Of a stretch of 44,426 nt of DNA, positions 151-44,426 are shown piece after piece. Numbering within the stretch: position 1 is the stretch's first letter; every line of letters begins with the position of its first letter. A program made the translations under genes and the position numbers. The stretch is from a virus. The notes under the pieces are model-generated. The model ran no database searches. It had not been told where the DNA came from and saw nothing but the letters and a program-made list of their open reading frames with translations. The stretch is from positions 1 to 44,426 of the IMG/VR virus record IMGVR_UViG_3300043313_000403, one strand, 5' to 3'.

Positions 151-765
151 TTATGCCTTGGTCTTGTACTTTTCGATGAATTCAGCCGGGGCCTCACTTT
201 CGCTACCCGTCGGCCATTTGAGAACGCCCGCGTTCGCCACCACCTTCTGCAGCGCAACACGCCCCGTCATGCGGAACCGACCTTCCCACCCTCTGGTTTG
301 GCTGGTCCAGCGCGAATGATCCACACCATTCGCATCCAGCACGTCCTTAAACGCTCCGATGTCGATGCTGTGCTTATCATTCAGGCAGAACGTGGCAAGC
401 TGCTGGCTCAGCCAGTCCCAATTCGATCTCTTGGCTGCCTTGCCCGGAATGCCGTTTGCCCGCGCGTTCTCAATGTACTTCACCTTAAACTTGTCCTTCA
501 CCACCGAAATGCTCTCCTTCGGCTCCTCTTCGGCGGGTTCTTCCTTCTCTTCGGCGTCCAACGGGGCGTTCATCTCTTGGTAGATTTCGCGTGCGATTTC
601 GTGATCCTCTTTGGTGATCTCATCTTCTCTGGGTTCGCGTTCCTCGCCGCTCTGGATCCCCATTTCGGTGGGCATGTCGTAACCCGAATGTTCGCGCGCC
701 AATTCGCGCTCCGAATCGATCGCTGCCCGTTCCGCCTCAGTCTGCTTGCGTGCTCTCTTCGCCAT
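151..765 (-). CDS. Paralog family member 1 (SVV-x3-[FY]-x3-Y ... GW-x-GR-x-RMTGR domain), function unknown
   Basis: ATG at 765 follows a GGAGAAG RBS. The longer track ORF to 846 would start inside the promoter. The C-terminal ~110 aa are about 60% identical by eye to CDS 42974-43459 and clearly related to 3667-4191 and 7653-8081. Confidence 0.7.
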   Translation of the reverse strand: MAKRARKQTEAERAAIDSERELAREHSGYDMPTEMGIQSGEEREPREDEITKEDHEIAREIYQEMNAPLDAEEKEEPAEEEPKESISVVKDKFKVKYIENARANGIPGKAAKRSNWDWLSQQLATFCLNDKHSIDIGAFKDVLDANGVDHSRWTSQTRGWEGRFRMTGRVALQKVVANAGVLKWPTGSESEAPAEFIEKYKTKA

Positions 766-3666: not shown

Positions 3667-4191
3667 ATGGATAGAATCAACGGAATACCAACAGACGGTA
3701 CAATCGCGTACAAAGAGGGCTGGTTCGCAGGGGACTGCCCTTATTTGGATCAAGACCCTGAATTCGGCAGGTGGAACGACGAATGGGACGCCGCCGCCGA
3801 TTACAACGAAGAACACCCAAAGCCCAGAGTAGGGTCGGTGGTGACGAATCGATATCGTGCCCTGTATTCGGAGTCGGGGCACGCAACCCACTGCGGGGAT
3901 GCACTTGCCCTCCTCCTCAATTCGGTGTGCGTCAACAAGGCGGGCACGAACCTCGAGATATTCGAGGCGATCTGCGCGGCGAACGGAGTCGACCTGTCCA
4001 AATACAACCGCACGAATAAGGGTTGGCAGGGTCGGCTACGAATGACGGGACGGAACTTACTCGCCAAGCGCGTCTTGGCTAACAACGGCAAGTTGATTAT
4101 GCCGGAAGGGATGGGTGACGACTACCAATTAGACTACGACTGGATTACCACCACCGCAAACAAATACAAACCGAAAACGGAGCATGCATGA
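3667..4191 (+). CDS. Paralog family member 2, function unknown
   Basis: Shares SVVTNRYRALY ... ANGVD ... GWQGRLRMTGRNLLAKRV with the other three members. Confidence 0.7.
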   Translation: MDRINGIPTDGTIAYKEGWFAGDCPYLDQDPEFGRWNDEWDAAADYNEEHPKPRVGSVVTNRYRALYSESGHATHCGDALALLLNSVCVNKAGTNLEIFEAICAANGVDLSKYNRTNKGWQGRLRMTGRNLLAKRVLANNGKLIMPEGMGDDYQLDYDWITTTANKYKPKTEHA

Positions 4192-5011: not shown

Positions 5012-7570
5012 TTGGGGGACAATGGGGATAGCATGGAACAAATCAAGGGCGGCTTCGCGTTCAACAACGCGGACGAACTGCTCATCAATCAACAACGATC
5101 TATTACTGCCCAGATAAACAATAACTTCATCCAAGTCGGCGCGACCTTCTTGCAGATGTCAGGCAAGAATCCGTTCGCAACCGACTGGTATAAGCGAAAA
5201 TTCAGAGACACGAACCTGCAGGATTGGATAGACAATTCCAATATGCGCGTGCTGAATTTGGGCTTCAACCTCCAATTCGGTTGGTTGGACGTCGACATCG
5301 ATGCTGAAGACCCCGCCTACAATCGGTGCATGGTTAGCGCGTTCAAGTTCCTAGGCATCGACACTAGGTTCGCATTTGGGCGTTTGTCGCGCGGTGTTCC
5401 GAGCCACATGATGGTCCAACTCAACGAGACAGACCTGAACAACTATGACCAAATGAAGGAGTTTGAACCCAATGAATTCAAGCTGGGTGGGAAGCGGTAC
5501 AAGTGCGAATTACGCTCGATGGGGCCTTTGGCATCCGACTCACCTAACACCATCAAAGAATCACGACAGACCGTTATGCCCGGTTCCATCTACATCCATA
5601 AGTCCAAGCAGGGCGAACACGACGTGTCGGTTTGGTATACCGCGGAAGGCAAAGTTGCCCTCACGGTGGGCGAAATCGCAGCGACCACCTCCCGCAAAAC
5701 TAGCTTCGAATCCCTTATCACGGGCATTGCTTTTGGAACGTTTTTATACATTATCCAACCGCACTGGATCGAAGGTGGGCGACAACAACTGGCTACTAAG
5801 GTCGCTGGCTGGCTTGCGCGCCTCGTCCGAGAATCTCAAGGAATAAACAACAACGAGGGGATAAGCAACGGGACGTTCTGCCCGATTGGGTCGCCAGAAA
5901 CAGCCGAATCCATGCTAGATTTCGTGTGCGGCGAGCTAGGCGACAAAGAACCTTTCATGAGAAAGCGAGTGTTCCGTGACGCCATCAAGAAGCTCGAGAA
6001 TAATCCAGATGCTAAGATCCCCGGATGGCCAGCTTTGGAAGGAGACATTGGAACCGAATCCATCATGGCCCTGCGAACAGTGTTTATGCCAGGGGTTGAC
6101 GTGTCTCCACTTACCCAAATGGCGGATCGTTACATATACGACGAAACCGACGACCATTACATCGACAGGGAGCGATTCTACACAACCTCCGGGTTCGTCC
6201 ACGACGGGGCCGCTTTAGATCGACGACACCGAAATGACCTGATGGAAGTTGCGGGCAAGATGAAGCCTGTGTTCAGGCTGTTTGAGACTAGCCCACTTCG
6301 ACGCCGCGTCGGCGGCAGGGACTTATTCCCCGATTTCAGCCCCGGCTCTATATTTCGCTTAAGTCGATCTGGTGACGTCATTTCGGACGACGAGGATAAC
6401 GCCCCCGGCACGCTAACTATGTTCAACACGTGGCGCGGCTGGCCAATTCTCCCGGCCAAGAACATTGATCCAGTTCTTATAGCGAAATGCCACTCGATGA
6501 TGGAGCGGCTATTCGGCTACCTGTCCCAAGACAACACGACCCAAATAGAGTGGTTGAAGCAATGGATAGCATGGACTGTACAACATCCGGGGCAAAAGCA
6601 GCAGGTTTCTCCAGTATTTGTGGGTGGGCAGGGTGTCGGCAAGTCCTTTTTTGGAAATATTTTCCTAGAGCAACTGTTTCAGAACCAGTGGGGTTCCGCG
6701 TCACCAAAGATATTGGAAGGCACGTTCTCTGTCGAGCCTTTCATCAACAAGATGATTGTGTTTATCGACGAGGCCAAATTCCACAGCGAAGCGGCGACAG
6801 ACGAAATCAAGAAGTTGATCCGGTCGGACAGGATGGGTGGTGCGGAGAAGTTCCAGTCTGCGCGGACTTATCGTATTTTTGCACGGGTTGTGTTTGCCAG
6901 TAACCGATGGGACATGAACATAGGCCAAGCGAACACGCAGGATCGTGCATTATTCTACATGAAGACCTACGACAAAGACTACAAGAAGATGACGGAAAAT
7001 GAATTTAGATCATGGACAGTTACTCTCAAGCCATTCTTTGATGAGTTCAACAGCTTTATCCGTCGTATGGATGTCAAGGAGCACTTCATGCACATCTTCG
7101 ACACTATGGAAGTTAGTCGCCACAATATCGAGAACGTCACCCACTCAAGCGGAGCAGATAGCCAGATCGTTGAATCCAATATGGCCTATCCTCGCAGGGT
7201 TGCAAAACACATCGTGGAGGAAGGACGCATTTGGGAAGATCTCGATATAAGCGCACCGTTCACCATGGTGGAATTCAATAAGCGGGTGGCTGATATCTGC
7301 GATTCGGCCCGCATTCGCTATGTCCAGCCCCGCCACGTATTCGATGAGTTCGTCAGCGCTGGCGTCATCGAAAAGTGGGCTAAGGACGGGGCCAAATTCT
7401 ACAGGTTCAAGTACAAGATTGGCACCCTAACCGAAATGATGAGCCTAGCAATAGGCGTACCGCTGGAATCCAGGTTCTCCTTTGATGAGAGTGATTTTGG
7501 CATCAACGAATCCGAATTACTAGGAGCAAAGCAATGGCGCGGCAGCATAAACAGCCGTTTCCGTATGTGA
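5012..7570 (+). CDS. Bifunctional AEP primase-polymerase / SF3 (D5-like) helicase
   Basis: The N-terminal region has a DxD motif (WLDVDIDAED) typical of the archaeo-eukaryotic primase fold. The C-terminal region has Walker A (VGGQGVGKSFF) and Walker B (MIVFIDEA). The start could instead be the ATG at 5033. Confidence 0.88.
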   Translation: MGDNGDSMEQIKGGFAFNNADELLINQQRSITAQINNNFIQVGATFLQMSGKNPFATDWYKRKFRDTNLQDWIDNSNMRVLNLGFNLQFGWLDVDIDAEDPAYNRCMVSAFKFLGIDTRFAFGRLSRGVPSHMMVQLNETDLNNYDQMKEFEPNEFKLGGKRYKCELRSMGPLASDSPNTIKESRQTVMPGSIYIHKSKQGEHDVSVWYTAEGKVALTVGEIAATTSRKTSFESLITGIAFGTFLYIIQPHWIEGGRQQLATKVAGWLARLVRESQGINNNEGISNGTFCPIGSPETAESMLDFVCGELGDKEPFMRKRVFRDAIKKLENNPDAKIPGWPALEGDIGTESIMALRTVFMPGVDVSPLTQMADRYIYDETDDHYIDRERFYTTSGFVHDGAALDRRHRNDLMEVAGKMKPVFRLFETSPLRRRVGGRDLFPDFSPGSIFRLSRSGDVISDDEDNAPGTLTMFNTWRGWPILPAKNIDPVLIAKCHSMMERLFGYLSQDNTTQIEWLKQWIAWTVQHPGQKQQVSPVFVGGQGVGKSFFGNIFLEQLFQNQWGSASPKILEGTFSVEPFINKMIVFIDEAKFHSEAATDEIKKLIRSDRMGGAEKFQSARTYRIFARVVFASNRWDMNIGQANTQDRALFYMKTYDKDYKKMTENEFRSWTVTLKPFFDEFNSFIRRMDVKEHFMHIFDTMEVSRHNIENVTHSSGADSQIVESNMAYPRRVAKHIVEEGRIWEDLDISAPFTMVEFNKRVADICDSARIRYVQPRHVFDEFVSAGVIEKWAKDGAKFYRFKYKIGTLTEMMSLAIGVPLESRFSFDESDFGINESELLGAKQWRGSINSRFRM

Positions 7571-7652: not shown

Positions 7653-8081
7653 ATGACTGACGAAGTGCAGACGACCGAGGAAGTGAAAAAGACGAAGTCG
7701 ATCGTGCCGTCCAAGTACAGTGGCCGGTACAAGAACGGCGGCGAAGATCCGCTTGCCAAGTTCATCAAGGAACAGTGCGTCGTTGAGGGTAACTTCAGCT
7801 TCGACAAGTTCTTTGAACTGACCGCCAGCAATGGCGTTCCGCAGGAGAAGGTCGACCACTACAAGGCACAGGTTGGCGAGAAGCGCCACGGTGCCGAAGG
7901 ACGTGCACGAATGACGCTCCGCAACATGCTGGCGACCATCGTGCGCAAAAACGGCAAGGCCACCGGCCTCGACGGAAGTGAAGTTGCCATCGACCTGCCG
8001 AAGCCAGCCCTTACGGGTGCGGCTAAGGCGGCTCAGGAAGCGACCTCCACAGGTAGTCAAGCTGAACCTGCCGCTGCCTAA
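7653..8081 (+). CDS. Paralog family member 3 (most divergent), function unknown
   Basis: SIVPSKYSGRY ... SNGVPQEKV ... GAEGRARMTLRNMLATIV aligns with the family motifs. Confidence 0.65.
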   Translation: MTDEVQTTEEVKKTKSIVPSKYSGRYKNGGEDPLAKFIKEQCVVEGNFSFDKFFELTASNGVPQEKVDHYKAQVGEKRHGAEGRARMTLRNMLATIVRKNGKATGLDGSEVAIDLPKPALTGAAKAAQEATSTGSQAEPAAA

Positions 8082-9791: not shown

Positions 9792-9890
9792 ATGACACCA
9801 GAATTATCCGAAGCGTTAACCGGGCTGGTAACAACTGTAACTTGGCTGATAGTAATAATATTCGCGCTGTGGGTGTCATTTGGGAAATAA
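9792..9890 (+). CDS. Possible 32-aa single-pass membrane peptide
   Basis: MTPELSEALTGLVTTVTWLIVIIFALWVSFGK fills the gap just before the polymerase gene. Confidence 0.3.
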   Translation: MTPELSEALTGLVTTVTWLIVIIFALWVSFGK

Positions 9891-9891
9891 C

Positions 9892-11685
9892 ATGAAGCAA
9901 TGTATTAATCCGGAACTCGCGCTCGACTTGGTGCGGTGCCATTACAAACCTATAGCTTTCGATACCGAAACAACAGGATTGACTGTTCATGATAAGATCT
10001 GCGGTTACGTCATTACCAATGAAGAGTATTCGATATATGTCCCGGTTCGCCACGAAGGAGGTGGCAATATTCCAAATGCGGAAGACTTCGAGCGCGCTCT
10101 CGCTGGTGCTTTTAGAGATCGCAGCCGTCTTCTATTTCGGACTGTTGGTCATAATCTTGGCTTCGATTTACGTATTTGTTTACGGCATGGTATAGAATTA
10201 CTGGGTCCGCTGGAAGATACGATGATCAACGAGGCGATCATCAGTGACATTACCCAAGGATACAGCCTCGACGAATCATGCCTGCGGCGCAAGGTGACGC
10301 CAAAGAAGGGGGACGAACTCTATGCCGAACTCGCTCGCCGATTTGGAGGCCTTCCTGACCGTAAGCAAATGGGAAAGTTCTGGAGACTCGAAGGAGACCA
10401 CCCCCTCATCGTCGATTATGCCACAGGTGACGGTATCTCCACTCTTGAGTTATGGGCCAAGCAACAGCCCATCTTGGACGCTGACGATCTTCGCAAACCA
10501 TGGCAACTCGAATGCGATCTTCTCCCTTACGTTGCACGGATTCACGCCCGAGGACTTAAAATCGACAGCGAATACGCAGGAAGAGTAGGAGGCGAAATTG
10601 AAGAAGCCATCGCAGAAAAAAGCAAAGTCTTTGTCCCCGGCTTCAACGTCCGGTCGCCAAAAACCGTTGAGGCTCTCTATCGCTCAAATGGCTTCACAGA
10701 TACCGAGTTTTCCCGTACCGCTGGAGGGGCGTTCTCCTTCACAGAAAAGTGGCTCGAAACCAACGAAATCGGAGGAGCCATCCTTGCAGTTAGACGGCTC
10801 GAAAAGGCACGGGACAGCTTTATCGCACCCCTTATTGACACACACAATGTCAATGGACGAGTCCACCCCGTTCTTAACCAATCCAAGTCCGACGACTATG
10901 GAGTTGCCGGTGTCAGATTCTCGTGTAGTGAACCTAACTTACAAGCTTTCCCTAAACGGAACATCGACGTTGGACGCGTTGTTAGACGACTGGTGGTCCC
11001 AGATGAGGGCTTCGTTATTGAAGAGGCTGACGCAAAACAGCAAGAACCAAGGCTTTTCACTCACTATTCAGGAGACCCAGCTTTGGTCGATGGATACCGA
11101 AGCGGAACTATGGATATCCACGATAGAGCGTCCGAAGTCCTCGGACTAGACCGCGACACCGCAAAGCGGCTGGGGATGGGGATGCTCACCATGATGTCCC
11201 CGCCGACGCTCGCGGGGCACATGAGGTGGCCAATCGAGCGAGCGCGTGACGCGCACCGCGCGTTCCTCACCGACGCTTTTCCCCACATCAAGACCTTTCA
11301 GGACACGGCAGTTCATGTATTCAAGCGGCGCGGCTATGTTAAAACACTACTTGGACGGCGAGCCTATCTCGATGAGCCAAAATTCGCTTACCGCGCAGTC
11401 TCCCGAATCATACAAAACGGGGGAGGAGAACACCTCAAAATGTGCCTCCTTCGAGCCTGTCAGTACGAAGATGCCTATCCCGACCAAGTCCAGATACTAC
11501 TTACGATTCACGACAGCTTACTCTGGCAACGTAGGCCAGATCACGACGTTCGTGATTTAATTCGGAGTATCGAGCATGTGGCAGAACTTCTCGAGCTTGC
11601 AGTCCCTATTCCTTTCGGTTTGGGGTCCGGCAAGGATTGGGCAATGGCCAGTTACGGAGACAAACTTGACAAATACGAAGAATAA
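9892..11685 (+). CDS. DNA polymerase I family with 3'-5' exonuclease (candidate DpoZ-type polymerase)
   Basis: Exo motifs: IAFDTETTGL, HNLGFDL, YATGDGISTLEL. Pol motifs: RFSCSEPNLQAFPKR, an EADAKQQEPRLF (motif A region), RDTAKRLGMGMLTMM (motif B) and LLTIHDSLL (motif C). I used the ATG at 9892; the track start at 9880 is a TTG. Confidence 0.9.
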   Translation: MKQCINPELALDLVRCHYKPIAFDTETTGLTVHDKICGYVITNEEYSIYVPVRHEGGGNIPNAEDFERALAGAFRDRSRLLFRTVGHNLGFDLRICLRHGIELLGPLEDTMINEAIISDITQGYSLDESCLRRKVTPKKGDELYAELARRFGGLPDRKQMGKFWRLEGDHPLIVDYATGDGISTLELWAKQQPILDADDLRKPWQLECDLLPYVARIHARGLKIDSEYAGRVGGEIEEAIAEKSKVFVPGFNVRSPKTVEALYRSNGFTDTEFSRTAGGAFSFTEKWLETNEIGGAILAVRRLEKARDSFIAPLIDTHNVNGRVHPVLNQSKSDDYGVAGVRFSCSEPNLQAFPKRNIDVGRVVRRLVVPDEGFVIEEADAKQQEPRLFTHYSGDPALVDGYRSGTMDIHDRASEVLGLDRDTAKRLGMGMLTMMSPPTLAGHMRWPIERARDAHRAFLTDAFPHIKTFQDTAVHVFKRRGYVKTLLGRRAYLDEPKFAYRAVSRIIQNGGGEHLKMCLLRACQYEDAYPDQVQILLTIHDSLLWQRRPDHDVRDLIRSIEHVAELLELAVPIPFGLGSGKDWAMASYGDKLDKYEE

Positions 11686-11824
11686 TGAATCAATACCGCA
11701 GGCTGAAGCTGATAGGCTCCTTGACAGAATCAAGGAAATTATGGCCGAAACGGGGGAGCCATTCGGTCCGTGTGTTAACATCTACATCAAAGAAACCTAT
11801 GGCAAGCCCATTGAAAATAACTAG
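11666..11824 (+). CDS. Possible 52-aa acidic helical protein, TTG start overlapping the polymerase 3' end
   Basis: The frame ...ESIPQAEADRLLDRIKEIMAETGEPFGPCVNIYIKETYGKPIENN looks far more protein-like than the alternative frame starting at 11685. TTG at 11666 is preceded by GGAGA. The start is uncertain. Confidence 0.3.
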   Translation: MTNTKNNESIPQAEADRLLDRIKEIMAETGEPFGPCVNIYIKETYGKPIENN

Positions 11825-12149
11825 CCTAGTTTTCGGCGGATCGGCGCTGTTCGCGTTGATGCTTTCCTTCGCGGCACGAAATGACGTGCCTCAAATTGTA
11901 GCTGCAGCCGAAATTGATCAGTTCGACGATAACTGGCGCGATTCCGTAAGGGTGGTCGCGTTGAAGTCAGCTTCCTTGATGGACACCGAACCGAAGTCGA
12001 TCAAAACCGAAATAGTATCCCCTTCGATACCGCCCATTGTTATGGTCGAAGAGGAAAAACCCAAACGTCGCCACCACGTAGAACGCGATATATGCCAACG
12101 TCACGGATTGCGTAAGGTGATCCGTGGTAAAAGATGGAGATGTAAATGA
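11799..12149 (+). CDS. Membrane-anchored protein (116 aa) with basic Cys-containing C-terminus
   Basis: MASPLKITSLVFGGSALFALMLSFAA forms an N-terminal hydrophobic anchor. The upstream part of track ORF 11685-12149 is Arg/Lys/Ser-rich and probably non-coding in this frame. The RBS is weak. Confidence 0.45.
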   Translation: MASPLKITSLVFGGSALFALMLSFAARNDVPQIVAAAEIDQFDDNWRDSVRVVALKSASLMDTEPKSIKTEIVSPSIPPIVMVEEEKPKRRHHVERDICQRHGLRKVIRGKRWRCK

Positions 12150-12680: not shown

Positions 12681-13334
12681 ATGAAGAAGCTACTGTTTGC
12701 GACCACTGCCTTAATTGCATTATCGGCCGCACCGGCCAAGGCTGATTTCTACGCCACCAGCTACACCGTCCTCGGCGCGCAGAACGTCACACTACTGACG
12801 CCGAAATTCGAGAACGTACAGGCGGGTGAGATCCGCCTCCAGGGACCGAGCGGCTCGGTCGATGTCTGGTGCCTCGACGTGTTCGACGGCATTAACCTTC
12901 CCTACGACTACACCGTCCAGACCTTCAATGCCGGCGACAGCCGCCCCGGCATCGCGCCGTTAAACTCCGGTCAGGTTCGCCAGATCGCGGCGCTTATGTT
13001 CATCGGTGACCACGTAGCTGGCATCGACAAGGCCGGAATCCAGCTCGCTATCTGGAAGGCGGAATATGGCGCAGCGTTCTCGTCCCTCGCCAGCGGATCT
13101 CTGCTGGCCGACGAAAATCTGTACTTCTCGCAGACCTCGTTCGGCGGTCTTTACGACCGTGCTGACCTGACGCTGACCGTCTACACCGACGCCCCGATCA
13201 ATCCGTCGCAGGCGTTCGGCACTGCTACCGTTGCGGCGGTTCCGGAGCCTGCGACGTGGGCTATGATGATCCTTGGGTTCTTGGGCGTTGGTGGTCTGGC
13301 CATGCGCAAGAAGGGTCAGCTGCGGCTTGCCTGA
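12681..13334 (+). CDS. Secreted protein with PEPxxWA-CTERM (exosortase-type) sorting signal
   Basis: N-terminal signal peptide MKKLLFATTALIALSAAPAKA. The C-terminus VPEPATWAMMILGFLGVGGLAMRKKGQ has the PEP motif, a hydrophobic helix and a basic cluster. GGAGAA RBS. Confidence 0.85.
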   Translation: MKKLLFATTALIALSAAPAKADFYATSYTVLGAQNVTLLTPKFENVQAGEIRLQGPSGSVDVWCLDVFDGINLPYDYTVQTFNAGDSRPGIAPLNSGQVRQIAALMFIGDHVAGIDKAGIQLAIWKAEYGAAFSSLASGSLLADENLYFSQTSFGGLYDRADLTLTVYTDAPINPSQAFGTATVAAVPEPATWAMMILGFLGVGGLAMRKKGQLRLA

Positions 13335-13450: not shown

Positions 13451-13664
13451 GCCATATCGACCGGGAGACCCCGTCTACTATTTCGAGGCTAAGATTGAAG
13501 TGACGACAGCCAAAGCATACCTAGTTATCCCAACGATGGGCAGCGCCAAGGAAGCTTGGTGTCCCAAGTCGCAGATTGTGTCGATGAGCGAACCGGACGA
13601 GAATGGCAACCGAATGTTCGAAGTAACATCGTGGTGGTGGGAAAAATCTGGAATTAAAGAATGA
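13449..13664 (+). CDS. Small conserved phage protein (71 aa)
   Basis: AGGAG lies 9 nt upstream of the ATG. The pattern KAYLV...EAWCPKSQI...FEVTSWWWEKSG is common in small phage proteins. A transcript from the overlapping promoter would miss this ATG. Confidence 0.55.
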   Translation: MPYRPGDPVYYFEAKIEVTTAKAYLVIPTMGSAKEAWCPKSQIVSMSEPDENGNRMFEVTSWWWEKSGIKE

Positions 13665-14056
13665 AAGAGGCTGACGTCAAGCGAAACATGGTCAAGTCGA
13701 TGCAGGAAGGCGGGGGTTACGCGCGCCGCATCGAAGACCAGTATTCGGTGGGCACCTACGATATGATCCTTATCCTCCCCCGGCTGCCAGTGTTTATGGC
13801 CGAAGTGAAGGTGATCCGCGACAACGTGTTTGGCCCAACACCAAGGCAGTTGATAGAACTGCAACGCATCAAATTAGCCGCCGAAGATGGTGGCCACGCA
13901 ATCCCCGTTGTTATTGGGTTCAAGGACGGGGTGTATTACTTTCACAAACCCAAAATGACTATCGACCGCAGGGATTGCTTTTCGGTAACGACGAGCGACG
14001 TCCCGTTCTACAAGCAACTATCCCTATATTATTACGCACAGAAGGACGCAACATGA
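13661..14056 (+). CDS. VRR-NUC / PD-(D/E)xK family nuclease
   Basis: GTYDMILIL...VFMAEVKV...TPRQLIELQRIKLAAEDGGHAIPVV matches the D...E-x-K core and the VRR-NUC Q-containing helix. Confidence 0.7.
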   Translation: MKEADVKRNMVKSMQEGGGYARRIEDQYSVGTYDMILILPRLPVFMAEVKVIRDNVFGPTPRQLIELQRIKLAAEDGGHAIPVVIGFKDGVYYFHKPKMTIDRRDCFSVTTSDVPFYKQLSLYYYAQKDAT

Positions 14057-14433
14057 ATCCGAAGTTACGCGACACCCCGTTGGAAATCGCCGAAGGCACC
14101 TTGCTCGACGCTGGCGATGCTATTCGTGCCCGCCTCAAGGAACACGGCCACACCGAGCGTTCATTCAAAATGGTAGGCGAACTGTGGAGCGTGTACATTT
14201 CGCACGCTTACACCAGCCGCGACCAGTTGCACTTGCAGCCCCACGACATAGCCCAAATGATGACCCTCACCAAAATCGCGCGGGCTGTCTATGGCTATTC
14301 GATGGACAACTTCATTGATGGGGCCGGTTACACTGCCCTCGCGTCGATGCTGACACCGCCCCCTGCGGTGAAGTCGCCGAAAGTGCAGCCGTTGGTGCAG
14401 CCCAAGAAAGAAGAATCCGATGGGACTGTTTAA
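14053..14433 (+). CDS. DUF6378-like protein (nucleotide-metabolism-associated, function unknown)
   Basis: ATG at 14053 in an ATGA overlap. ERSFKMVGELWSVYISH...LQPHDIAQMMTLTKIARAVYG...DNFIDGAGYTALAS resembles my recollection of DUF6378. It overlaps the purZ start by 14 nt. Confidence 0.55.
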   Translation: MNPKLRDTPLEIAEGTLLDAGDAIRARLKEHGHTERSFKMVGELWSVYISHAYTSRDQLHLQPHDIAQMMTLTKIARAVYGYSMDNFIDGAGYTALASMLTPPPAVKSPKVQPLVQPKKEESDGTV

Positions 14434-15472
14434 GTACAACGGCGTTCATTGCGTCGTCGACGGTCAATTTGGCTCAACGGGAAAGGGGGCGCTCAGCGCC
14501 TACCTTGCCGAAATAGCCATCAAGCACGGCCACGCGGGCAAATTCAGCGGCGCGATTTACAGCGGGGGTCCTAACAGCGGGCACACGTTCTACCACGGCG
14601 ACGAGAAGATCGTGCTCAAGCAACTCCCCGTGTTCAGCGTGTATATGCGTTGCGCCGGGATACACGTCCCGGCTTACCTATCGGCGGGGGCGATAATTGA
14701 TCGCGATATCCTGAGGAAAGAGGCGGAGAAATTCCCCAATCTCCAGATTTTCGTGCACCCCAACGCCGCCATCGTAACCAACGAGGACCGTAAACACGAA
14801 GAGGACGGCCCAATAGCGAAAGTGGCAGGAACTCGGAGCGGGACCGGCGAAGCGTTGGTCCGGAAGATACGTCGGATGCCCGAAGCCATCGCTGGCAATT
14901 CGCTGGGCTTGATTGCCCATAACGTATCCATTCTTAACCACCGGATCAAGCCGGAGCGCAACGCCTACTTTATGGAAGTATCACAGGGGTTCAGCCTTGG
15001 CATCAACTCACAGTTTTACCCAAAAGTTACGAGCCGCGAGTGCACCGTAATGCAAGGATTAGCTGATGCTAGAATTCCTCCGCGACATTTATCGCGTACT
15101 TATATGGCAATCCGTACCTTTCCTATTCGGGTGGGGGATGTCGATGGCTATTCTGCTGGCGGTTGGTATCAAGATCAGCATGAGACTAACTGGGATAATC
15201 TAGGGGTCACGGAAGAGAGAACGACGGTGACCAACCGTGTCCGGAGGGTTGCATCATTCTCCATGGAGCAATTCTTCGAGGCTTGCTACGCCAACGATCC
15301 GGACTACGTGTTCGTCAGCCACATGGATTATCTGGACCGCGAAGGACAGATCAGCCTAATGGAGGACCTTAACGCCGCCAAGGGAACAATGAACAAATAC
15401 TTTGATTTCCTCGTGGCGAGGGGACCCAAAGTGAGCGATGTATTAAGAGAGGAAGCAATATATGCAGAATGA
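14420..15472 (+). CDS. purZ: PurZ-type N6-succino-2-amino-2'-deoxyadenylate synthase (short PurA homolog)
   Basis: PurA motifs occur in order: DGQFGSTGKG (P-loop, GDEGKG in PurA), GGPNSGHTF, AGTRSGTGEA, EVSQGFSLGINSQFYPKVTS, RTFPIRVG, TTVTNRVRRV. It is 350 aa (archaeal/PurZ-sized) and lies next to a MazG-like gene in a phage. Confidence 0.75.
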   Translation: MGLFKYNGVHCVVDGQFGSTGKGALSAYLAEIAIKHGHAGKFSGAIYSGGPNSGHTFYHGDEKIVLKQLPVFSVYMRCAGIHVPAYLSAGAIIDRDILRKEAEKFPNLQIFVHPNAAIVTNEDRKHEEDGPIAKVAGTRSGTGEALVRKIRRMPEAIAGNSLGLIAHNVSILNHRIKPERNAYFMEVSQGFSLGINSQFYPKVTSRECTVMQGLADARIPPRHLSRTYMAIRTFPIRVGDVDGYSAGGWYQDQHETNWDNLGVTEERTTVTNRVRRVASFSMEQFFEACYANDPDYVFVSHMDYLDREGQISLMEDLNAAKGTMNKYFDFLVARGPKVSDVLREEAIYAE

Positions 15473-15824
15473 TGAGATTACACTGGACGTTCCTCCGTCG
15501 CTGGAGAAATACACCATCCATTTGGGATTATTCTTCGCTGGCATGATCGAAAAGCTGGACAAGAATTCCCACAAGGATACCCCAACGATTGCCACTATCC
15601 CCAAAATCCTGAGCCTGTTGCAGGGAGAAGTAGAGGAATTTAAGGATCAGTTCTATGAGGATAGGAACAACGAAAATACATTGATCGAACTGATGGACGT
15701 GGCCAACTTCGCATTTTTGGCCTACATCGCATTGAGGCTGCAAGGGGTGGAGCATGCGAATAAAAATAAGAAAATCGGATCAACGGTGGTTCAAGAAGAA
15801 ATACGGAAAGGACTGGAAAAATAG
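15462..15824 (+). CDS. mazZ: MazG-like all-alpha NTP pyrophosphohydrolase (MazZ candidate)
   Basis: Metal-binding motifs GEVEEFKDQ and ELMDVANFAFL. It is 120 aa and overlaps the purZ stop by 11 nt. Confidence 0.7.
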   Translation: MQNDEITLDVPPSLEKYTIHLGLFFAGMIEKLDKNSHKDTPTIATIPKILSLLQGEVEEFKDQFYEDRNNENTLIELMDVANFAFLAYIALRLQGVEHANKNKKIGSTVVQEEIRKGLEK

Positions 15825-15883: not shown

Positions 15884-17275
15884 ATGAGCCAACTTTTGGA
15901 AGTACAAGCGAAGGCGCTGACAAGCGCGCATGACCGCCCCGGATTCGCTTACTACATGGAAATGGGGCTGGGGAAGACACTTACGGCGTTAACCGAATTT
16001 CAGATTCTAGTGGAGGCCAAACAAGCTACCCGATTGGTTGTGGTGTGCCCCAATTCGTTCAAGGCGGGATGGGCGGATGAAATCAAGAAGCACGACATGA
16101 ACTTCCGCGTCCACCTGTTCGAATCCGGTAACGATTGGGTCAACGACATGTTCCTCCGGGAGCAGTTCGACAAACCCCCGGTGCTCGTCATAAACTACGA
16201 GGCGATCCGCAAGGATGACACGTTCAATTATATCCGAAGATTTGTGGCTGGTCGCGCCGCAATGATTGTGCTGGACGAATCGGTGCAGATCAAGACATAC
16301 AACAGCCAGCAGACCAAGGCCGCGCTCGCGTTGGCTCAATATTTCGTATATAAGCGCATTTTGTCCGGCAAGCCTGTAACCCAAGGCCCACACGACCTTT
16401 GGGCACAGATGAAGTTCATCGGAGCGATCAGCGAAAAATACTTTCCGTTCAAGACCACCTTCTGCAAGATGGGCGGTTTCAAAGCCAAGAAGGTAGTGGG
16501 CACCCAAAATGAAGAGTTACTTGCGGCTAAGATTGAGAAATTCATATTTCGGGCCTCCAAGAAGGACTGGACCGATCTGCCACCGAAGATGTATACCTCG
16601 CGGCAATACCAACTTCCAGCTAAGCTTGCAGCACAGTATAAGAGCATGGAAGATGATTTTGTACTTTGGCTTGACGAAAGTCAGAACGTGGCTGTCGACG
16701 CGTTCATCACGAAATACATAAAGCTAGCCCAGATACAGTCCGGATTCATCATCAAGGAAGACGGCTCGGTAGAGGAACTAGTCGCCCCGGAGGACAACCC
16801 CCGGTTCAACTTGGTCCGCGACATTATCGAAGAGACAGACGGTAAGGTGGTGGTCCCGTATATTCACCGGTACACGTCGCACTTGCTGCTGCGGAGCTTG
16901 GAGGACTACTTCCCCGCGATGATCAAGGGTGGTATGTCCCCGGAGGAAATTCAATTCAACAAAGCTAGGTTCAACGATGACGATGCATGCAGGGTTATCC
17001 TGGTACAAACCAGAGCGGGAAAGTACGGTCACACTCTTCTTGGAGGGGAAGGAGCTTTGGATAGATGCTCCACGATGGTGTTTGCCGAGAATTCTTACTC
17101 TCTTGACGACCGGAGCCAAATCGAAGACAGAATCCACCGACATGGGCAAACGGCTAACAGTTGTCTATATGTCGATGTTTGGGGCACTGATTTGGATCGC
17201 CGTGTCACGAGAGCGCTTCAAGTCAAAGAGGACATAGCCCAAGCAGTGTTCTCGTACTTCAAAAAGACCGCCTAA
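15884..17275 (+). CDS. SNF2/SWI2-family helicase
   Basis: Motif I MEMGLGKTLTAL, motif II VLDESVQIK, motif VI QIEDRIHRHGQ. Confidence 0.88.
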   Translation: MSQLLEVQAKALTSAHDRPGFAYYMEMGLGKTLTALTEFQILVEAKQATRLVVVCPNSFKAGWADEIKKHDMNFRVHLFESGNDWVNDMFLREQFDKPPVLVINYEAIRKDDTFNYIRRFVAGRAAMIVLDESVQIKTYNSQQTKAALALAQYFVYKRILSGKPVTQGPHDLWAQMKFIGAISEKYFPFKTTFCKMGGFKAKKVVGTQNEELLAAKIEKFIFRASKKDWTDLPPKMYTSRQYQLPAKLAAQYKSMEDDFVLWLDESQNVAVDAFITKYIKLAQIQSGFIIKEDGSVEELVAPEDNPRFNLVRDIIEETDGKVVVPYIHRYTSHLLLRSLEDYFPAMIKGGMSPEEIQFNKARFNDDDACRVILVQTRAGKYGHTLLGGEGALDRCSTMVFAENSYSLDDRSQIEDRIHRHGQTANSCLYVDVWGTDLDRRVTRALQVKEDIAQAVFSYFKKTA

Positions 17276-42973: not shown

Positions 42974-43459
42974 ATGGCCAAGAAGACACACACGCCCACC
43001 GCTGCCGAAGTCGCAGCCAAGTTCGACGCAGCCATGGCTGTCGTGCACGAACTCCCCACGCTCGCCGATCTGCCGATCGACGCCGAAGTCGCGGAGGAGA
43101 TCGAGAAGAAGGGCTCGGTCGTGAAGAGCACGTACAAGAAGAAGTACGCGGCGCGCGCGGCCGGTGCCGGGCTTGGTAAGACAGCCCAGCGCTCGTGCTG
43201 GGACTGGCTGGCGCAAGAGCTGGCGAGCGAGTGCCTCGACGGCACGAAGATCGACATCGGCCGGTTCCTCGCCACGCTCGAAGCCAACGCCGTGGACCAC
43301 AGCCGATGGACGAACCGCAGCAAGGGCTGGGAAGGACGCCTGCGGATGACAGGCCGCCTCGCACTCCAGAAGGTGGTGGCCGCCCAAGGGCACCTGAAGA
43401 CGGTCGAGGGCGCCGAAATTGCAGCGCCCGCCGAGTGGGTGGCGAAGTTCACGAACTGA
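42974..43459 (+). CDS. Paralog family member 4, function unknown
   Basis: ATG at 42974 follows a GAGGAGAG RBS. SVVKSTYKKKY...CWDWLAQELASECL...IDIGRF...ANAVDHSRWTNRSKGWEGRLRMTGRLALQKVV. It is the closest relative of CDS 151-765. Confidence 0.7.
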   Translation: MAKKTHTPTAAEVAAKFDAAMAVVHELPTLADLPIDAEVAEEIEKKGSVVKSTYKKKYAARAAGAGLGKTAQRSCWDWLAQELASECLDGTKIDIGRFLATLEANAVDHSRWTNRSKGWEGRLRMTGRLALQKVVAAQGHLKTVEGAEIAAPAEWVAKFTN

Positions 43460-44152: not shown

Positions 44153-44380
44153 TCATCCTATTTTCGCTTGGAATACATCATAATCGTTGATCTTCGCTAC
44201 GCCATTTCCTATCTCTAGTTTTTCGGCGATTTGTTTCATTGGCGTATATAGAAGACTGGCCGCCCCGCGTAAATCACAGTCTGTTCCATCTTCATGGCCT
44301 CTCCCGTAAATCGTTAAGTGCTGAAACCGAATGTTCAACATATCCCGTTCTGCTTTTTCCCGCTTTAATTTACTGCTCAT
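44153..44380 (-). CDS. Hypothetical protein (75 aa), spans the window junction
   Basis: AGGAGAG RBS. Its first 23 nt are duplicated at 1-23. The promoter is at 48-76 (partly repeated at 44405-44426). Confidence 0.55.
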   Translation of the reverse strand: MSSKLKREKAERDMLNIRFQHLTIYGRGHEDGTDCDLRGAASLLYTPMKQIAEKLEIGNGVAKINDYDVFQAKIG

Positions 44381-44426
44381 TTCGCTCTCCTGTTTGAATC
44401 CCCTAGTTTACCACACCCCGCCCACC
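44358..44426. repeat. Terminal overlap copy B, identical to 1-69
   Basis: Exact 69-nt identity with the window start. Confidence 0.95.

Follow-up and report, generated by a model that had tools for sequence, protein, structure and literature searches.

The window, the whole 44,426-nt stretch of viral DNA analysed here, likely represents a phage with a 2-aminoadenine (Z) genome that lacks DatZ and carries a PurZ whose phosphate donor is probably GTP or dGTP; as the best overall explanation of the comparisons below, this reading is held with good confidence. In the earlier note, a purZ–mazZ pair had been taken as the signature of the PurZ/MazZ pathway. This prediction of a Z genome is supported by the identities of purZ and mazZ-2, together with the position of PurZ within its clade. 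Most likely, some or all of the adenine in the phage DNA is replaced by Z. The window is the complete 44-kb genome, as the exact repeat at its two ends indicates, of an uncultured podovirus-like phage related to the OH/Wolominvirus group. Its relevant features are:

1–69, with an identical copy at 44358–44426, no strand: terminal direct repeat of 69 bp (exact)
5012–7570, + strand: primase-polymerase/VapE-like helicase (Pfam DUF5906 and VapE-like domains; 50% identity to OH gp22)
9880–11685, + strand: family-A DNA polymerase (PolA) with 3'-5' exonuclease, candidate Z-incorporating polymerase (Pfam; best PDB match 7PBK)
13661–14056, + strand: putative nuclease, first gene of an overlapping four-gene string (weak PHROG 93 endonuclease match, E=8e-5; position of OH gp30, "putative nuclease")
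14053–14433, + strand: DUF6378 protein, 126 aa (Pfam PF19905, E=9e-18)
14420–15472, + strand: purZ, predicted N6-succino-2-amino-2'-deoxyadenylate synthase (PurA homologue), 350 aa (PHROG 1211, PDB matches, tree, residue map)
14471–14488, + strand: PurZ P-loop G18-S19-T20-G21-K22-G23, with Ser19 in place of the catalytic PurA Asp13 (Z hallmark)
15317–15328, + strand: PurZ donor-base pocket S300-H301-M302-D303, in the alignment columns of E. coli PurA T330-K331-L332-D333 and S-2L PurZ N305-F306-A307-Q308
15462–15824, + strand: mazZ-2, putative MazG-like all-alpha (d)NTP pyrophosphohydrolase, 120 aa (OH gp33, phiVC8 p26, AF2/Foldseek, acidic residues)
15884–17275, + strand: SNF2-family helicase (Pfam SNF2-rel_dom, E=3.5e-24; 49% identity to OH gp36)

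The closest cultured relative is the Ochrobactrum phage vB_OspP_OH (Wolominvirus OH, NC_070933), a podovirus with short terminal repeats. The two genomes are fully syntenic, with a primase-polymerase, PolA, nuclease, DUF6378 protein, PurZ, MazZ-2 and helicase followed by the structural module on the opposite strand, and protein identity is 53% for PurZ, 62% for PolA and 71% for the major capsid protein. Unlike the window, vB_OspP_OH carries gp34 and DatZ between MazZ-2 and the helicase, has an adenine-type N-F-M-N pocket in its PurZ, and lacks the window's PEP-CTERM gene; there is no nucleotide-level similarity between the two. More generally, when 12 kb of the window was compared with phage genomes as nucleotides, there was no match, and relatives are visible at the protein level only. 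The podovirus-like setting proposed in the earlier note agrees with this synteny, and the alphaproteobacterial host that it suggested is probable, given that relatives of the host-like PEP-CTERM gene are almost exclusively alphaproteobacterial.

Family placement of the purZ product

The purZ reading frame starts with ATG and had been described as encoding a short PurA homologue. All six of the motifs listed for it are present, in the order given, at residues 16, 49, 137, 186, 232 and 268, with the P-loop reading GSTGKG where E. coli PurA has GDEGKG. Pfam returns only the generic adenylosuccinate synthetase family (Adenylsucc_synt, E=4e-19), and the match to PHROG 1211, the PurZ family, is at E=1.7e-54; judged by sequence, the resemblance to this family is far beyond chance. 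In the PDB, the best matches are PurZ of phiVC8 (6FM1, E=5e-41, 144 bits) and of S-2L (7ODX, E=4e-36, 128 bits), followed by PurZ0 (E=2.5e-29, 106 bits), the archaeal PurA of P. horikoshii (E=2e-16, 63 bits) and, marginally, E. coli PurA (E=0.01, 19 bits).

A phylogeny or HMM comparison had been proposed as a check, and in it the protein groups with characterised PurZ, and neither with cellular PurA nor with PurZ0. In a neighbour-joining tree it falls in the PurZ clade, which is split from PurZ0 at 100% bootstrap, and is nested deep inside PurZ with 98–100% bootstrap. Since the representative library had given PurZ-like proteins only, outgroups for this tree were taken from records of phages and of E. 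coli, with one reconstructed from a PDB alignment.

The active-site residues follow the same pattern. Ser19 corresponds to S14 of phiVC8 and S23 of S-2L PurZ; Ser occupies this position in 114/114 sequences with an S-H-x-D donor pocket like that of the window and in 125/127 with the N-F-x-N pocket (the remaining 2 are gapped there), and Asp occupies it in both PurA sequences. In the dGMP pocket and aspartate loop, N52, T138, Q189, V238, R152, T204, R237, T268-T271 and R275 are identical to their S-2L counterparts (N49, T132, Q190, V241, R146, T205, R240, T273-T276 and R280, as listed in PMC8342488), and G54-H55-T56 also match S-2L and phiVC8 PurZ. At T268, the position of S-2L T273, both PurA sequences have Gly. 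Thus the published dGMP, aspartate and triphosphate contacts are all kept, the exception being those to the donor base. By family placement and residue conservation, the ORF is identified as a genuine PurZ. It resembles the phiVC8 and S-2L enzymes in family, clade, length (~350 aa), P-loop Ser, dGMP base pocket, aspartate loop (TTVT...R), triphosphate contacts and a mazZ gene directly after it. It differs from them in overall sequence (33–36% identity) and in its pocket, S-H-M-D against N-F-x-N/Q; moreover, both of these phages encode DatZ beside mazZ, whereas the window does not.

It could also be imagined that the gene is a cellular-type PurA, acquired as an auxiliary metabolic gene that boosts AMP synthesis from IMP, aspartate and GTP, which would explain a GTP-type pocket; the donor pocket is indeed PurA-like, and Pfam names only the generic family. 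Replacement of the catalytic Asp13 by Ser, the deep nesting within PurZ, the distance between the E. coli PurA and phiVC8 PurZ scores (E=0.01 versus 5e-41), the presence of T268 and V238, and an operonic arrangement with MazZ-2 like that of known Z-phages all speak against it. The PDB scores, the tree and the residue map effectively refute this reading, to which we assign a negligible probability.

The donor-base pocket

The adenine-type donor pocket (N305, F306 and Q308 in S-2L; N294, F295 and N297 in phiVC8) is not present in the window PurZ, which has S300, H301 and D303. In ATP-type PurZ, adenine N6 donates hydrogen bonds to side-chain oxygens of N305 and Q308 (PMC8342488), and F295 has been listed as an adenine-stabilising hallmark of PurZ, with phiVC8 Y298 likewise adenine-stabilising (bioRxiv 2025.10.22.683976). 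At this motif, ATP-type PurZ reads NFAQ, NFCN, NFAN or NFMN and P. horikoshii PurA reads TMLD; PurZ0, in alignments made in the present analysis, has SMAD, SFAD or TMLD. Mixed motifs, for example TFCD or GFxD, occur in other PurZ representatives. Work by Tong and colleagues in 2023 is said to have found that PurZ0 uses GTP. PurZ0 is presented as a GTP user in the introduction of bioRxiv 2025.10.22.683976, and one sentence in PMC12884076 on its donor reads to the opposite effect. An Asp333-to-Asn change is reported to shift E. coli PurA from GTP to XTP (Kang et al. 1994).

In terms of residue pattern, S300/H301/D303 corresponds to GTP-using PurA and PurZ0 and not to the adenine-binding N/F/N(Q) set. 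Because of this guanine-type pocket, the phosphate donor of the window PurZ is probably GTP or dGTP rather than ATP or dATP. The adenine-type pocket, in turn, defines an ATP-using subtype of PurZ and not the dGMP chemistry. A point against GTP use is that H301 differs from the Lys or Met found in known GTP users. The earlier note had missed this remodelled pocket, and with it, the assay that the note proposed, with dGMP, aspartate and ATP, may not be the right positive control.

Alternatively, the enzyme may be a standard PurZ with an unchanged donor, in which S-H-x-D binds ATP or dATP, the switch is a neutral or fine-tuning variant and datZ was simply lost. The 6-amino group of adenine could hydrogen-bond to Asp303, allowing ATP use; the oxygens of Ser and Asp could together replace N305 and Q308 as acceptors for adenine N6, and His is able to stack on a purine. 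Y304 (phiVC8 Y298) and G335-P336 are retained, and the TFCD and GFxD motifs show that the position tolerates Asp with Phe retained. However, the three base-reading side chains have switched jointly to the PurA/PurZ0 residue classes, and loss of the Q308/N297 amide removes a feature said to exclude guanine. In addition, S300, H301 and D303 are the only three of 350 positions that discriminate the S-H-x-D clade from its N-F-x-N relatives and are invariant in 110–114 sequences, a constancy among more than 110 diverged sequences that is hard to call neutral. An unchanged donor is accordingly considered unlikely, although clearly more credible than the PurA reading, and GTP or dGTP is retained as the probable donor.

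The history of the pocket can be read from the tree, in which the S-H-x-D clade is nested within N-F-x-N PurZ. This topology rules out ancestral retention of the pocket in a lineage placed between PurZ0 and PurZ. On phylogenetic grounds, the switch had a single origin inside ATP-type PurZ and the window pocket is identified as a secondary reversion within PurZ. PurZ0 phages do share the [S/T]-x-x-D donor motif, as does PurA, and they also lack DatZ (PMC12884076; bioRxiv 2025.10.22.683976). In contrast, PurZ0 forms a separate clade (100% bootstrap), has ~30% identity to the window protein and reads GSEAKG at the P-loop instead of GSTGKG, and its phages use DutZ, DmtZ and DUF5664, none of which was found in the window, rather than MazZ-2. 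The window PurZ thus lies outside the PurZ0 clade, with GSTGKG and with no dUTPase or NDT gene in its genome, and has only the [S/T]xxD motif in common with it.

MazZ-2, DatZ and the polymerase

The successive overlaps between the nuclease, DUF6378, purZ and mazZ-2 genes (4, 14 and 11 nt) suggest translational coupling of the four. A 120-aa MazG-type neighbour overlapping purZ had been described, and its EVEEF and ELMDVANF motifs are found at residues 56 and 76; the mazZ-2 frame starts with ATG and has its own Shine-Dalgarno sequence (GAGAGGAAG). Searched directly, this protein had no significant match in Pfam, PHROGs or the PDB, and placing it took a family profile and a structure model. It matches OH gp33 (phmmer E=4.6e-8) and phiVC8 p26 (hhalign probability 95%, E=3.6e-8), and its AF2 model, with four helices (pLDDT 82.8), aligns in Foldseek with the OH NTP-PPase (gp33) at a TM score of 0.84. 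Against the PDB, the best Foldseek match was AF_0060 (2P06; probability 0.98, TM 0.63–0.69), at E=0.2–0.4, which is not statistically significant, with MazG entries ranked lower; the family profile against 2P06 (E=0.035) was not significant either. These matches are in keeping with an all-alpha MazG/HisE NTP-pyrophosphatase fold. The acidic residues E56, E59, E76 and D79 are invariant in MazZ-2, the name given to the OH homologue by Czernecki et al. (2021), who reported four conserved acidic residues (PMC8342488). Similarity to S-2L MazZ is undetectable (hhalign probability 0.9%), phmmer queries with S-2L MazZ or the Bhz9 DUF5664-DUF550 protein matched nothing in the window or among the related loci scanned, and Pfam PF04447 (DUF550) did not match the protein. 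The MazG-like assignment therefore stands but is refined: the ORF encodes a predicted pyrophosphatase that belongs with MazZ-2 of phiVC8 and OH and not with the MazZ-1 of S-2L. Like phiVC8 p26 and OH gp33, it is a short, putatively all-alpha MazG-like protein directly after purZ with four acidic metal ligands; unlike them, it has a 16-residue C-terminal tail, common only to the nearest relative (L022), and stands without DatZ.

The absence of DatZ, which had also been pointed out, holds for the complete genome: a profile built from three phages and searched against 840 six-frame ORFs gave a best E of 1.5. No HD, YfbR, dUTPase, NDT, DUF550 or DUF5664 domain was detected in any sizeable ORF of the window, which by these searches has no known nucleotide-pool enzyme besides the purZ/mazZ-2 pair. 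The datZ-mazZ-purZ triad of Czernecki et al. (2021) is hence incomplete, datZ being missing, and the helicase gene starts 59 nt after mazZ-2, where relatives carry datZ. A datZ remnant or fusion scar was looked for in the MazZ-2 tail and at the mazZ-2/helicase junction, and none was found.

This setting had been called less usual, but DatZ-less genomes are common in the uncultured S-H-x-D clade. The motif is present in more than 110 protein clusters (90% identity), and a layout with MazZ-2 only and no DatZ occurs in 19 of 25 S-H-x-D lineages compared with 3 of 18 N-F-x-N relatives; most of the related loci extend only ~10 kb to either side of purZ, and a datZ farther away is possible in them but is excluded for the window. 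A strict coupling between S-H-x-D and DatZ loss was rejected: exceptions run both ways (L011, L034 and others; L006, L008 and L010), and the association is a statistical enrichment only, uncorrected for phylogeny.

The DUF6378 gene has its true start at the ATG at 14053, and a protein identical to its product over all 126 aa (100%, P0335) was found. It lies upstream of purZ in 44 of 46 related loci, and is also present in a Brucella phage without PurZ. The possibility that it is a hidden NTP pyrophosphatase, akin to DUF5664 or MazG and replacing DatZ, was rejected as unsupported: hhalign gave probabilities of 0.3% against the DUF5664-DUF550 enzyme and 0.1% against MazZ-2, a profile search of the PDB found nothing, and the AF2 model was mediocre (pLDDT 68) with no credible Foldseek match. 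For the putative nuclease, tblastn detected no similarity to OH gp30.

The presence of an own PolA had likewise been noted and holds. Its best PDB match is 7PBK, which we take to be the phiVC8 DpoZ structure (154 bits, versus 134 for Klenow), with 29.7% identity to DpoZ and 29.3% to Klenow. DpoZ of the phiVC8 type is characterised by three insertions (G349-G353, A442-P448 and P473-K491), extended exonuclease helices E1/E2 and an exonuclease insertion at 117-127 (PMC8599892). The window PolA has the E1/E2 extension, with an FGG..RK.QM signature common with DpoZ, and the first of the insertions, in the palm; insertions 2 and 3 are missing, as is the exonuclease insertion. The proposed parallel to DpoZ thus holds for two of the five structural features and fails for three.

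These observations invite the view that substitution is partial or absent: lacking both DatZ and a dATPase activity linked to PurZ, the phage would leave dATP in place, dZTP would be only a supplement yielding mixed A/Z DNA, or PurZ and MazZ-2 would serve general purine-pool manipulation. DatZ has been described as essential for A exclusion where the polymerase is unselective, and even the full S-2L triad gave only ~4–23% replacement in E. coli (PMC8342488); the window PolA lacks several DpoZ features, and a search for another dATP-removing gene in the window found none. On the other hand, conservation of Ser19 and of the whole dGMP pocket is strict, and the recurrence of the DatZ-less layout in 19 diverged lineages points to an arrangement that is stable and works. 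DatZ is likewise missing from PurZ0 phages, full substitution has been described for Z-phages as a group, and the DUF550 enzyme of SH-Ab 15497, which cleaves both dATP and dGTP, is a precedent for a dual pyrophosphatase. Limited or absent substitution is thus regarded as rather improbable, though less so than the PurA reading, and a Z genome made without DatZ remains preferred.

Proposed pathway and significance

We infer the following route. MazZ-2 would convert dGTP to dGMP, which PurZ would condense with aspartate to N6-succino-2-amino-dAMP; host PurB and host kinases would take this product to dZTP, and the phage PolA would insert dZTP opposite T. Because there is no DatZ, exclusion of dATP must fall to MazZ-2, if it also cleaves dATP, to selectivity of the polymerase, or to both; otherwise substitution would be incomplete. 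For the clade as a whole, it is tentatively proposed, at somewhat below an even chance, that in a large uncultured group of PurZ phages the adenine-type N-F-x-N pocket reverted to the guanine-type S-H-x-D and DatZ was largely dropped. The Z-DNA pathway would then have a third way of operating, with a GTP- or dGTP-driven PurZ, MazZ-2 as the sole pool enzyme and a PolA of its own type, in which dATP would be excluded through a dual-specificity MazZ-2 and/or the polymerase.

The Z-genome pathway is already known, and one more phage with PurZ is not news by itself. A PurZ with a guanine-type donor pocket in a DatZ-less genome, however, is a variant not yet described, and the window, with purZ and mazZ-2 alone, is a complete and minimal representative of a lineage that is very common in the environment. 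It breaks two published generalisations, namely that datZ, mazZ and purZ always occur together and that F295 and N297 are hallmarks of PurZ tied to ATP/dATP use. For the engineering of Z-DNA synthesis, a Z module of two genes that draws on a different energy donor and a three-residue switch open to mutagenesis would be useful, and the DatZ-less state poses a clear and answerable question: how adenine stays out of the DNA. If the donor is GTP or dGTP, the one-way account from archaeal PurA through PurZ0 (GTP) to PurZ (ATP) needs a return step, and so does a second look at the argument that selection favoured ATP/dATP as donors because this helps to deplete dATP become necessary; the donor specificity of PurZ would then have flipped at least twice, from GTP to ATP and back to GTP.

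PurZ identity of the short PurA homolog

The two open reading frames predicted in the earlier note, with their 11-nt overlap, were recovered exactly, and their main features are as follows.

14420-15472, + strand: purZ, 350 aa; Pfam Adenylsucc_synt, E = 4e-19; PHROG 1211 (PurZ family), E = 1.7e-54
15317-15328, + strand: predicted donor-base pocket S300-H301-M302-D303, placed by global alignment
15462-15824, + strand: mazZ-2, 120 aa, overlapping purZ by 11 nt

All six adenylosuccinate-synthetase motifs are present in the order claimed, the P-loop reads GSTGKG versus GDEGKG in E. coli PurA, and the smaller protein carries both EVEEF and ELMDVANF. Against solved structures, the 350-aa protein matched the PurZ of phiVC8 (144 bits) and of S-2L (128 bits), then PurZ0 of Gordonia phage Archimedes (7VF6; 106 bits), with lower matches to P. 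horikoshii PurA (63 bits) and E. coli PurA (19 bits); the identities of structures 7VF6 and 5K7X are taken from PMC12884076. The phylogenetic comparison proposed earlier was made by neighbour-joining on corrected p-distances (100 bootstraps). The 268 aligned sequences comprised the window protein together with 120 close metagenomic relatives, some 135 cluster representatives (50% identity), PurZ and PurZ0 from isolates, and the PurA of P. horikoshii and of E. coli. The protein fell within the PurZ clade, split from PurZ0 at 100% bootstrap, and within a 120-member subclade of PurZ (98% support).

The substrate contacts of S-2L PurZ (PMC8342488) were each mapped onto this protein by alignment. 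The two enzymes agree in every contact of the dGMP pocket, the aspartate loop, and the triphosphate (window residues S19, N52, G54-H55-T56, T138, R152, Q189, T204, R237, V238, T268-T-V-T271, and R275). Because these contacts are kept, the assignment as a PurZ, predicted to act on dGMP and not IMP, is well supported, and a reading as cellular PurA is excluded.

The donor-base pocket

The sole exception among the mapped contacts concerns the side chains that read the phosphate-donor base: N305, F306, and Q308 in S-2L (PMC8342488), and N294, F295, and N297 in phiVC8. F295 was named an adenine-stabilising hallmark of PurZ in a 2025 preprint (bioRxiv 2025.10.22.683976). In the columns of S300-H301-M302-D303, PurZ reads NFAQ in S-2L, NFCN in phiVC8, NFAN in the Acinetobacter phage, NFCN in the Pseudomonas phage, and NFMN in the Ochrobactrum podophage vB_OspP_OH (hereafter OH), while E. 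coli PurA has T330-K331-L332-D333, P. horikoshii PurA TMLD, and four PurZ0 proteins SMAD, SFAD, or TMLD. In PurA, guanine specificity is classically assigned to Asp333, whose replacement by Asn changes the enzyme from GTP to XTP (Kang et al. 1994).

Positions 300, 301, and 303 are invariant in 110 close relatives, and no other position among the 350 separates this clade from its N-F-x-N relatives. In the neighbour-joining trees, whose branches inside the S-H-x-D clade have low support, the S-H-x-D state has one origin, nested inside N-F-x-N PurZ; it is thus a secondary reversion to a guanine-type motif, and ancestral retention is rejected on the same grounds. The pocket could still bind ATP: the Asp and Ser oxygens could accept the hydrogen bonds of the adenine N6 group, and the His differs from both the Lys and the Met of known GTP users. 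We nevertheless infer that donor preference has switched, or at least broadened, towards GTP/dGTP, and GTP or dGTP, not ATP, is somewhat favoured as the donor of the window enzyme.

Tong and colleagues reportedly found in 2023 that PurZ0 uses GTP. The same is given in the introduction of bioRxiv 2025.10.22.683976, and, besides the introduction of PMC12884076, other sources have PurZ using ATP/dATP. One sentence of PMC12884076 gives the preferences of PurZ0 and PurZ as "ATP and GTP, respectively". The reversed order goes against that paper's own introduction and is therefore probably a word-order slip, which could mislead annotators. The literature that could be searched yielded no description of the S-H-x-D pocket, of its having arisen once as a derived state, or of a link between it and a MazZ-2-only layout; the pathway itself, both enzymes (PurZ and MazZ-2), and phages of the OH-like group are already known.

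MazZ-2 and genome content

The 120-aa protein had no match when searched directly against Pfam, PHROG, and the PDB. OH gp33 (E = 5e-8) and phiVC8 p26 (hhalign 95%, E = 3.6e-8) are homologues, S-2L MazZ shows no detectable similarity, and E56, E59, E76, and D79 are invariant in 65 metagenomic homologues. PMC8342488 separates S-2L-like MazZ-1 from phiVC8-like MazZ-2, for which it notes four conserved acidic residues, and names the OH protein MazZ-2. A confident AlphaFold model (pLDDT 82.8) had OH gp33 as top viral match (TM 0.84); its best solved match was AF_0060 2P06 (probability 0.98), with MazG entries lower and none statistically significant. The MazG-type pyrophosphatase proposed earlier stands as MazG-like, with pyrophosphatase activity predicted, and is MazZ-2, not MazZ-1. 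Its 16-residue C-terminal extension (IGSTVVQEEIRKGLEK; 15771-15821), predicted to be helical, is shared only with the nearest relative, locus L022, and a datZ origin for it was rejected.

The same 69 bases occur at both ends of the window, which is therefore a complete phage genome in which gene absences are meaningful; it has no tRNA genes. OH, the closest isolate, shows full genome synteny (identity 53% for PurZ, 62% for PolA, 71% for the major capsid protein), but in OH gp34 and DatZ separate MazZ-2 from the helicase, and in the window the helicase gene begins 59 nt past mazZ-2. The absence of DatZ noted earlier was confirmed: its profile matched no frame of the window, and the mazZ-2/helicase junction holds no datZ remnant. 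When the other sizeable ORFs were searched with Pfam, no HD, dUTPase, NDT, DUF550, or DUF5664 domain turned up either, so PurZ and MazZ-2 are the only nucleotide-pool genes. Two further genes lie nearby.

12681-13334, + strand: PEP-CTERM protein, 217 aa, secreted; sorting signal VPEPATWAMM..., Pfam PF07589, E = 1.4e-5
14053-14433, + strand: DUF6378 gene (true start 14053), overlapping the purZ start

Overlaps of 4, 14, and 11 nt join the nuclease, DUF6378, purZ, and mazZ-2 genes in that order, and in 44 of the 46 related loci a DUF6378 gene stands ahead of purZ. Structural and profile comparison linked DUF6378 to no known enzyme. The gene is found in the non-Z Brucella phage Y17 as well, and the "phosphofructokinase" label that it has in PHROG seems to be a mis-annotation that has been propagated. 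ORFs 160-507 (-), 3667-4191 (+), 7653-8081 (+), and 43187-43456 (+) have in common a domain of unknown function whose relatives in OH are gp04, the gp15 C-terminus, and gp23; they make up a small paralogous family over both genome ends. The 154-aa ORF 11685-12149 (+), which directly follows the polymerase gene, lacks a Pfam match and an OH counterpart.

The PEP-CTERM gene, inside the replication module and absent from OH, is unusual phage cargo and hints at the host. Its best 80 cellular relatives are almost all from Alphaproteobacteria (Sphingomonas, Phenylobacterium, Bradyrhizobium), the remainder coming from MAGs with no finer label than Pseudomonadota/Proteobacteria and from one Frankia record; together with the Ochrobactrum host of the nearest isolate, they support the alphaproteobacterial host guessed earlier.

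Proposed pathway and gene layouts among relatives

9880-11685, + strand: DNA polymerase PolA; best solved relative 7PBK, the phiVC8 DpoZ structure

Of the five structural features that PMC8599892 lists, this polymerase shares only two with DpoZ (palm insertion 1 and the extension of the exonuclease at E1/E2), and it is equidistant from DpoZ and Klenow; the DpoZ assignment is only partial. The PurZ/MazZ interpretation of the earlier note is supported once amended for MazZ-2 type, a partial DpoZ assignment, and a common DatZ-less state. The whole pathway is likely: MazZ-2 would supply dGMP, PurZ would make the succinylated intermediate, dZTP (Z being 2-aminoadenine) would be completed by PurB and kinases of the host, and the phage PolA would incorporate it. 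In S-2L, dATP is removed by DatZ and by a dATPase side-activity of PurZ (PMC8342488). Given its donor pocket, such activity is doubtful for the window PurZ; with DatZ also missing, what would remain is a dual-specificity MazZ-2, for which the DUF550 enzyme is a precedent, polymerase selectivity, or incomplete substitution.

Eight metagenome contigs and 80 IMG/VR loci were scanned with DatZ, MazZ-2, DUF6378, and PurZ profiles. Those with 2.5 kb or more of sequence on the downstream side of purZ were retained and de-duplicated at 97% identity, which left 46 loci, most of them partial genomes.

Gene layouts of the 46 loci by PurZ type
S-H-x-D: 19 MazZ-2 only; 6 MazZ-2 and DatZ
N-F-x-N: 3 MazZ-2 only; 11 both; 4 DatZ only
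Third type (GSEGKG P-loop): 3 MazZ-2 only

The third type, found in more distant loci (L091-L093, L096-L098, and L100), has GSEGKG instead of GSTGKG and the donor motif N-Y-M-N (N-F-M-N in L100), with MazZ-2 present and no DatZ within contig reach. A sub-lineage (L005, L009/L067, L065, L066, and L070) shows the opposite reduction, purZ followed directly by datZ without MazZ-2, which poses the question of its dGMP source.

Loci with the S-H-x-D pocket are enriched for DatZ absence (Fisher p = 1.7e-4, without phylogenetic correction), and parsimony gives one change for the pocket, one for MazZ-2, and about eight for DatZ. Because the DatZ-less layout prevails among S-H-x-D loci, the window is typical of a large group without DatZ and not a defective one-off; the setting called less usual does lack DatZ, but this is common in its clade. 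According to PMC8342488, datZ, mazZ, and purZ are co-conserved in every case, a claim already softened to "mostly" in PMC12884076; it does not hold in this lineage.
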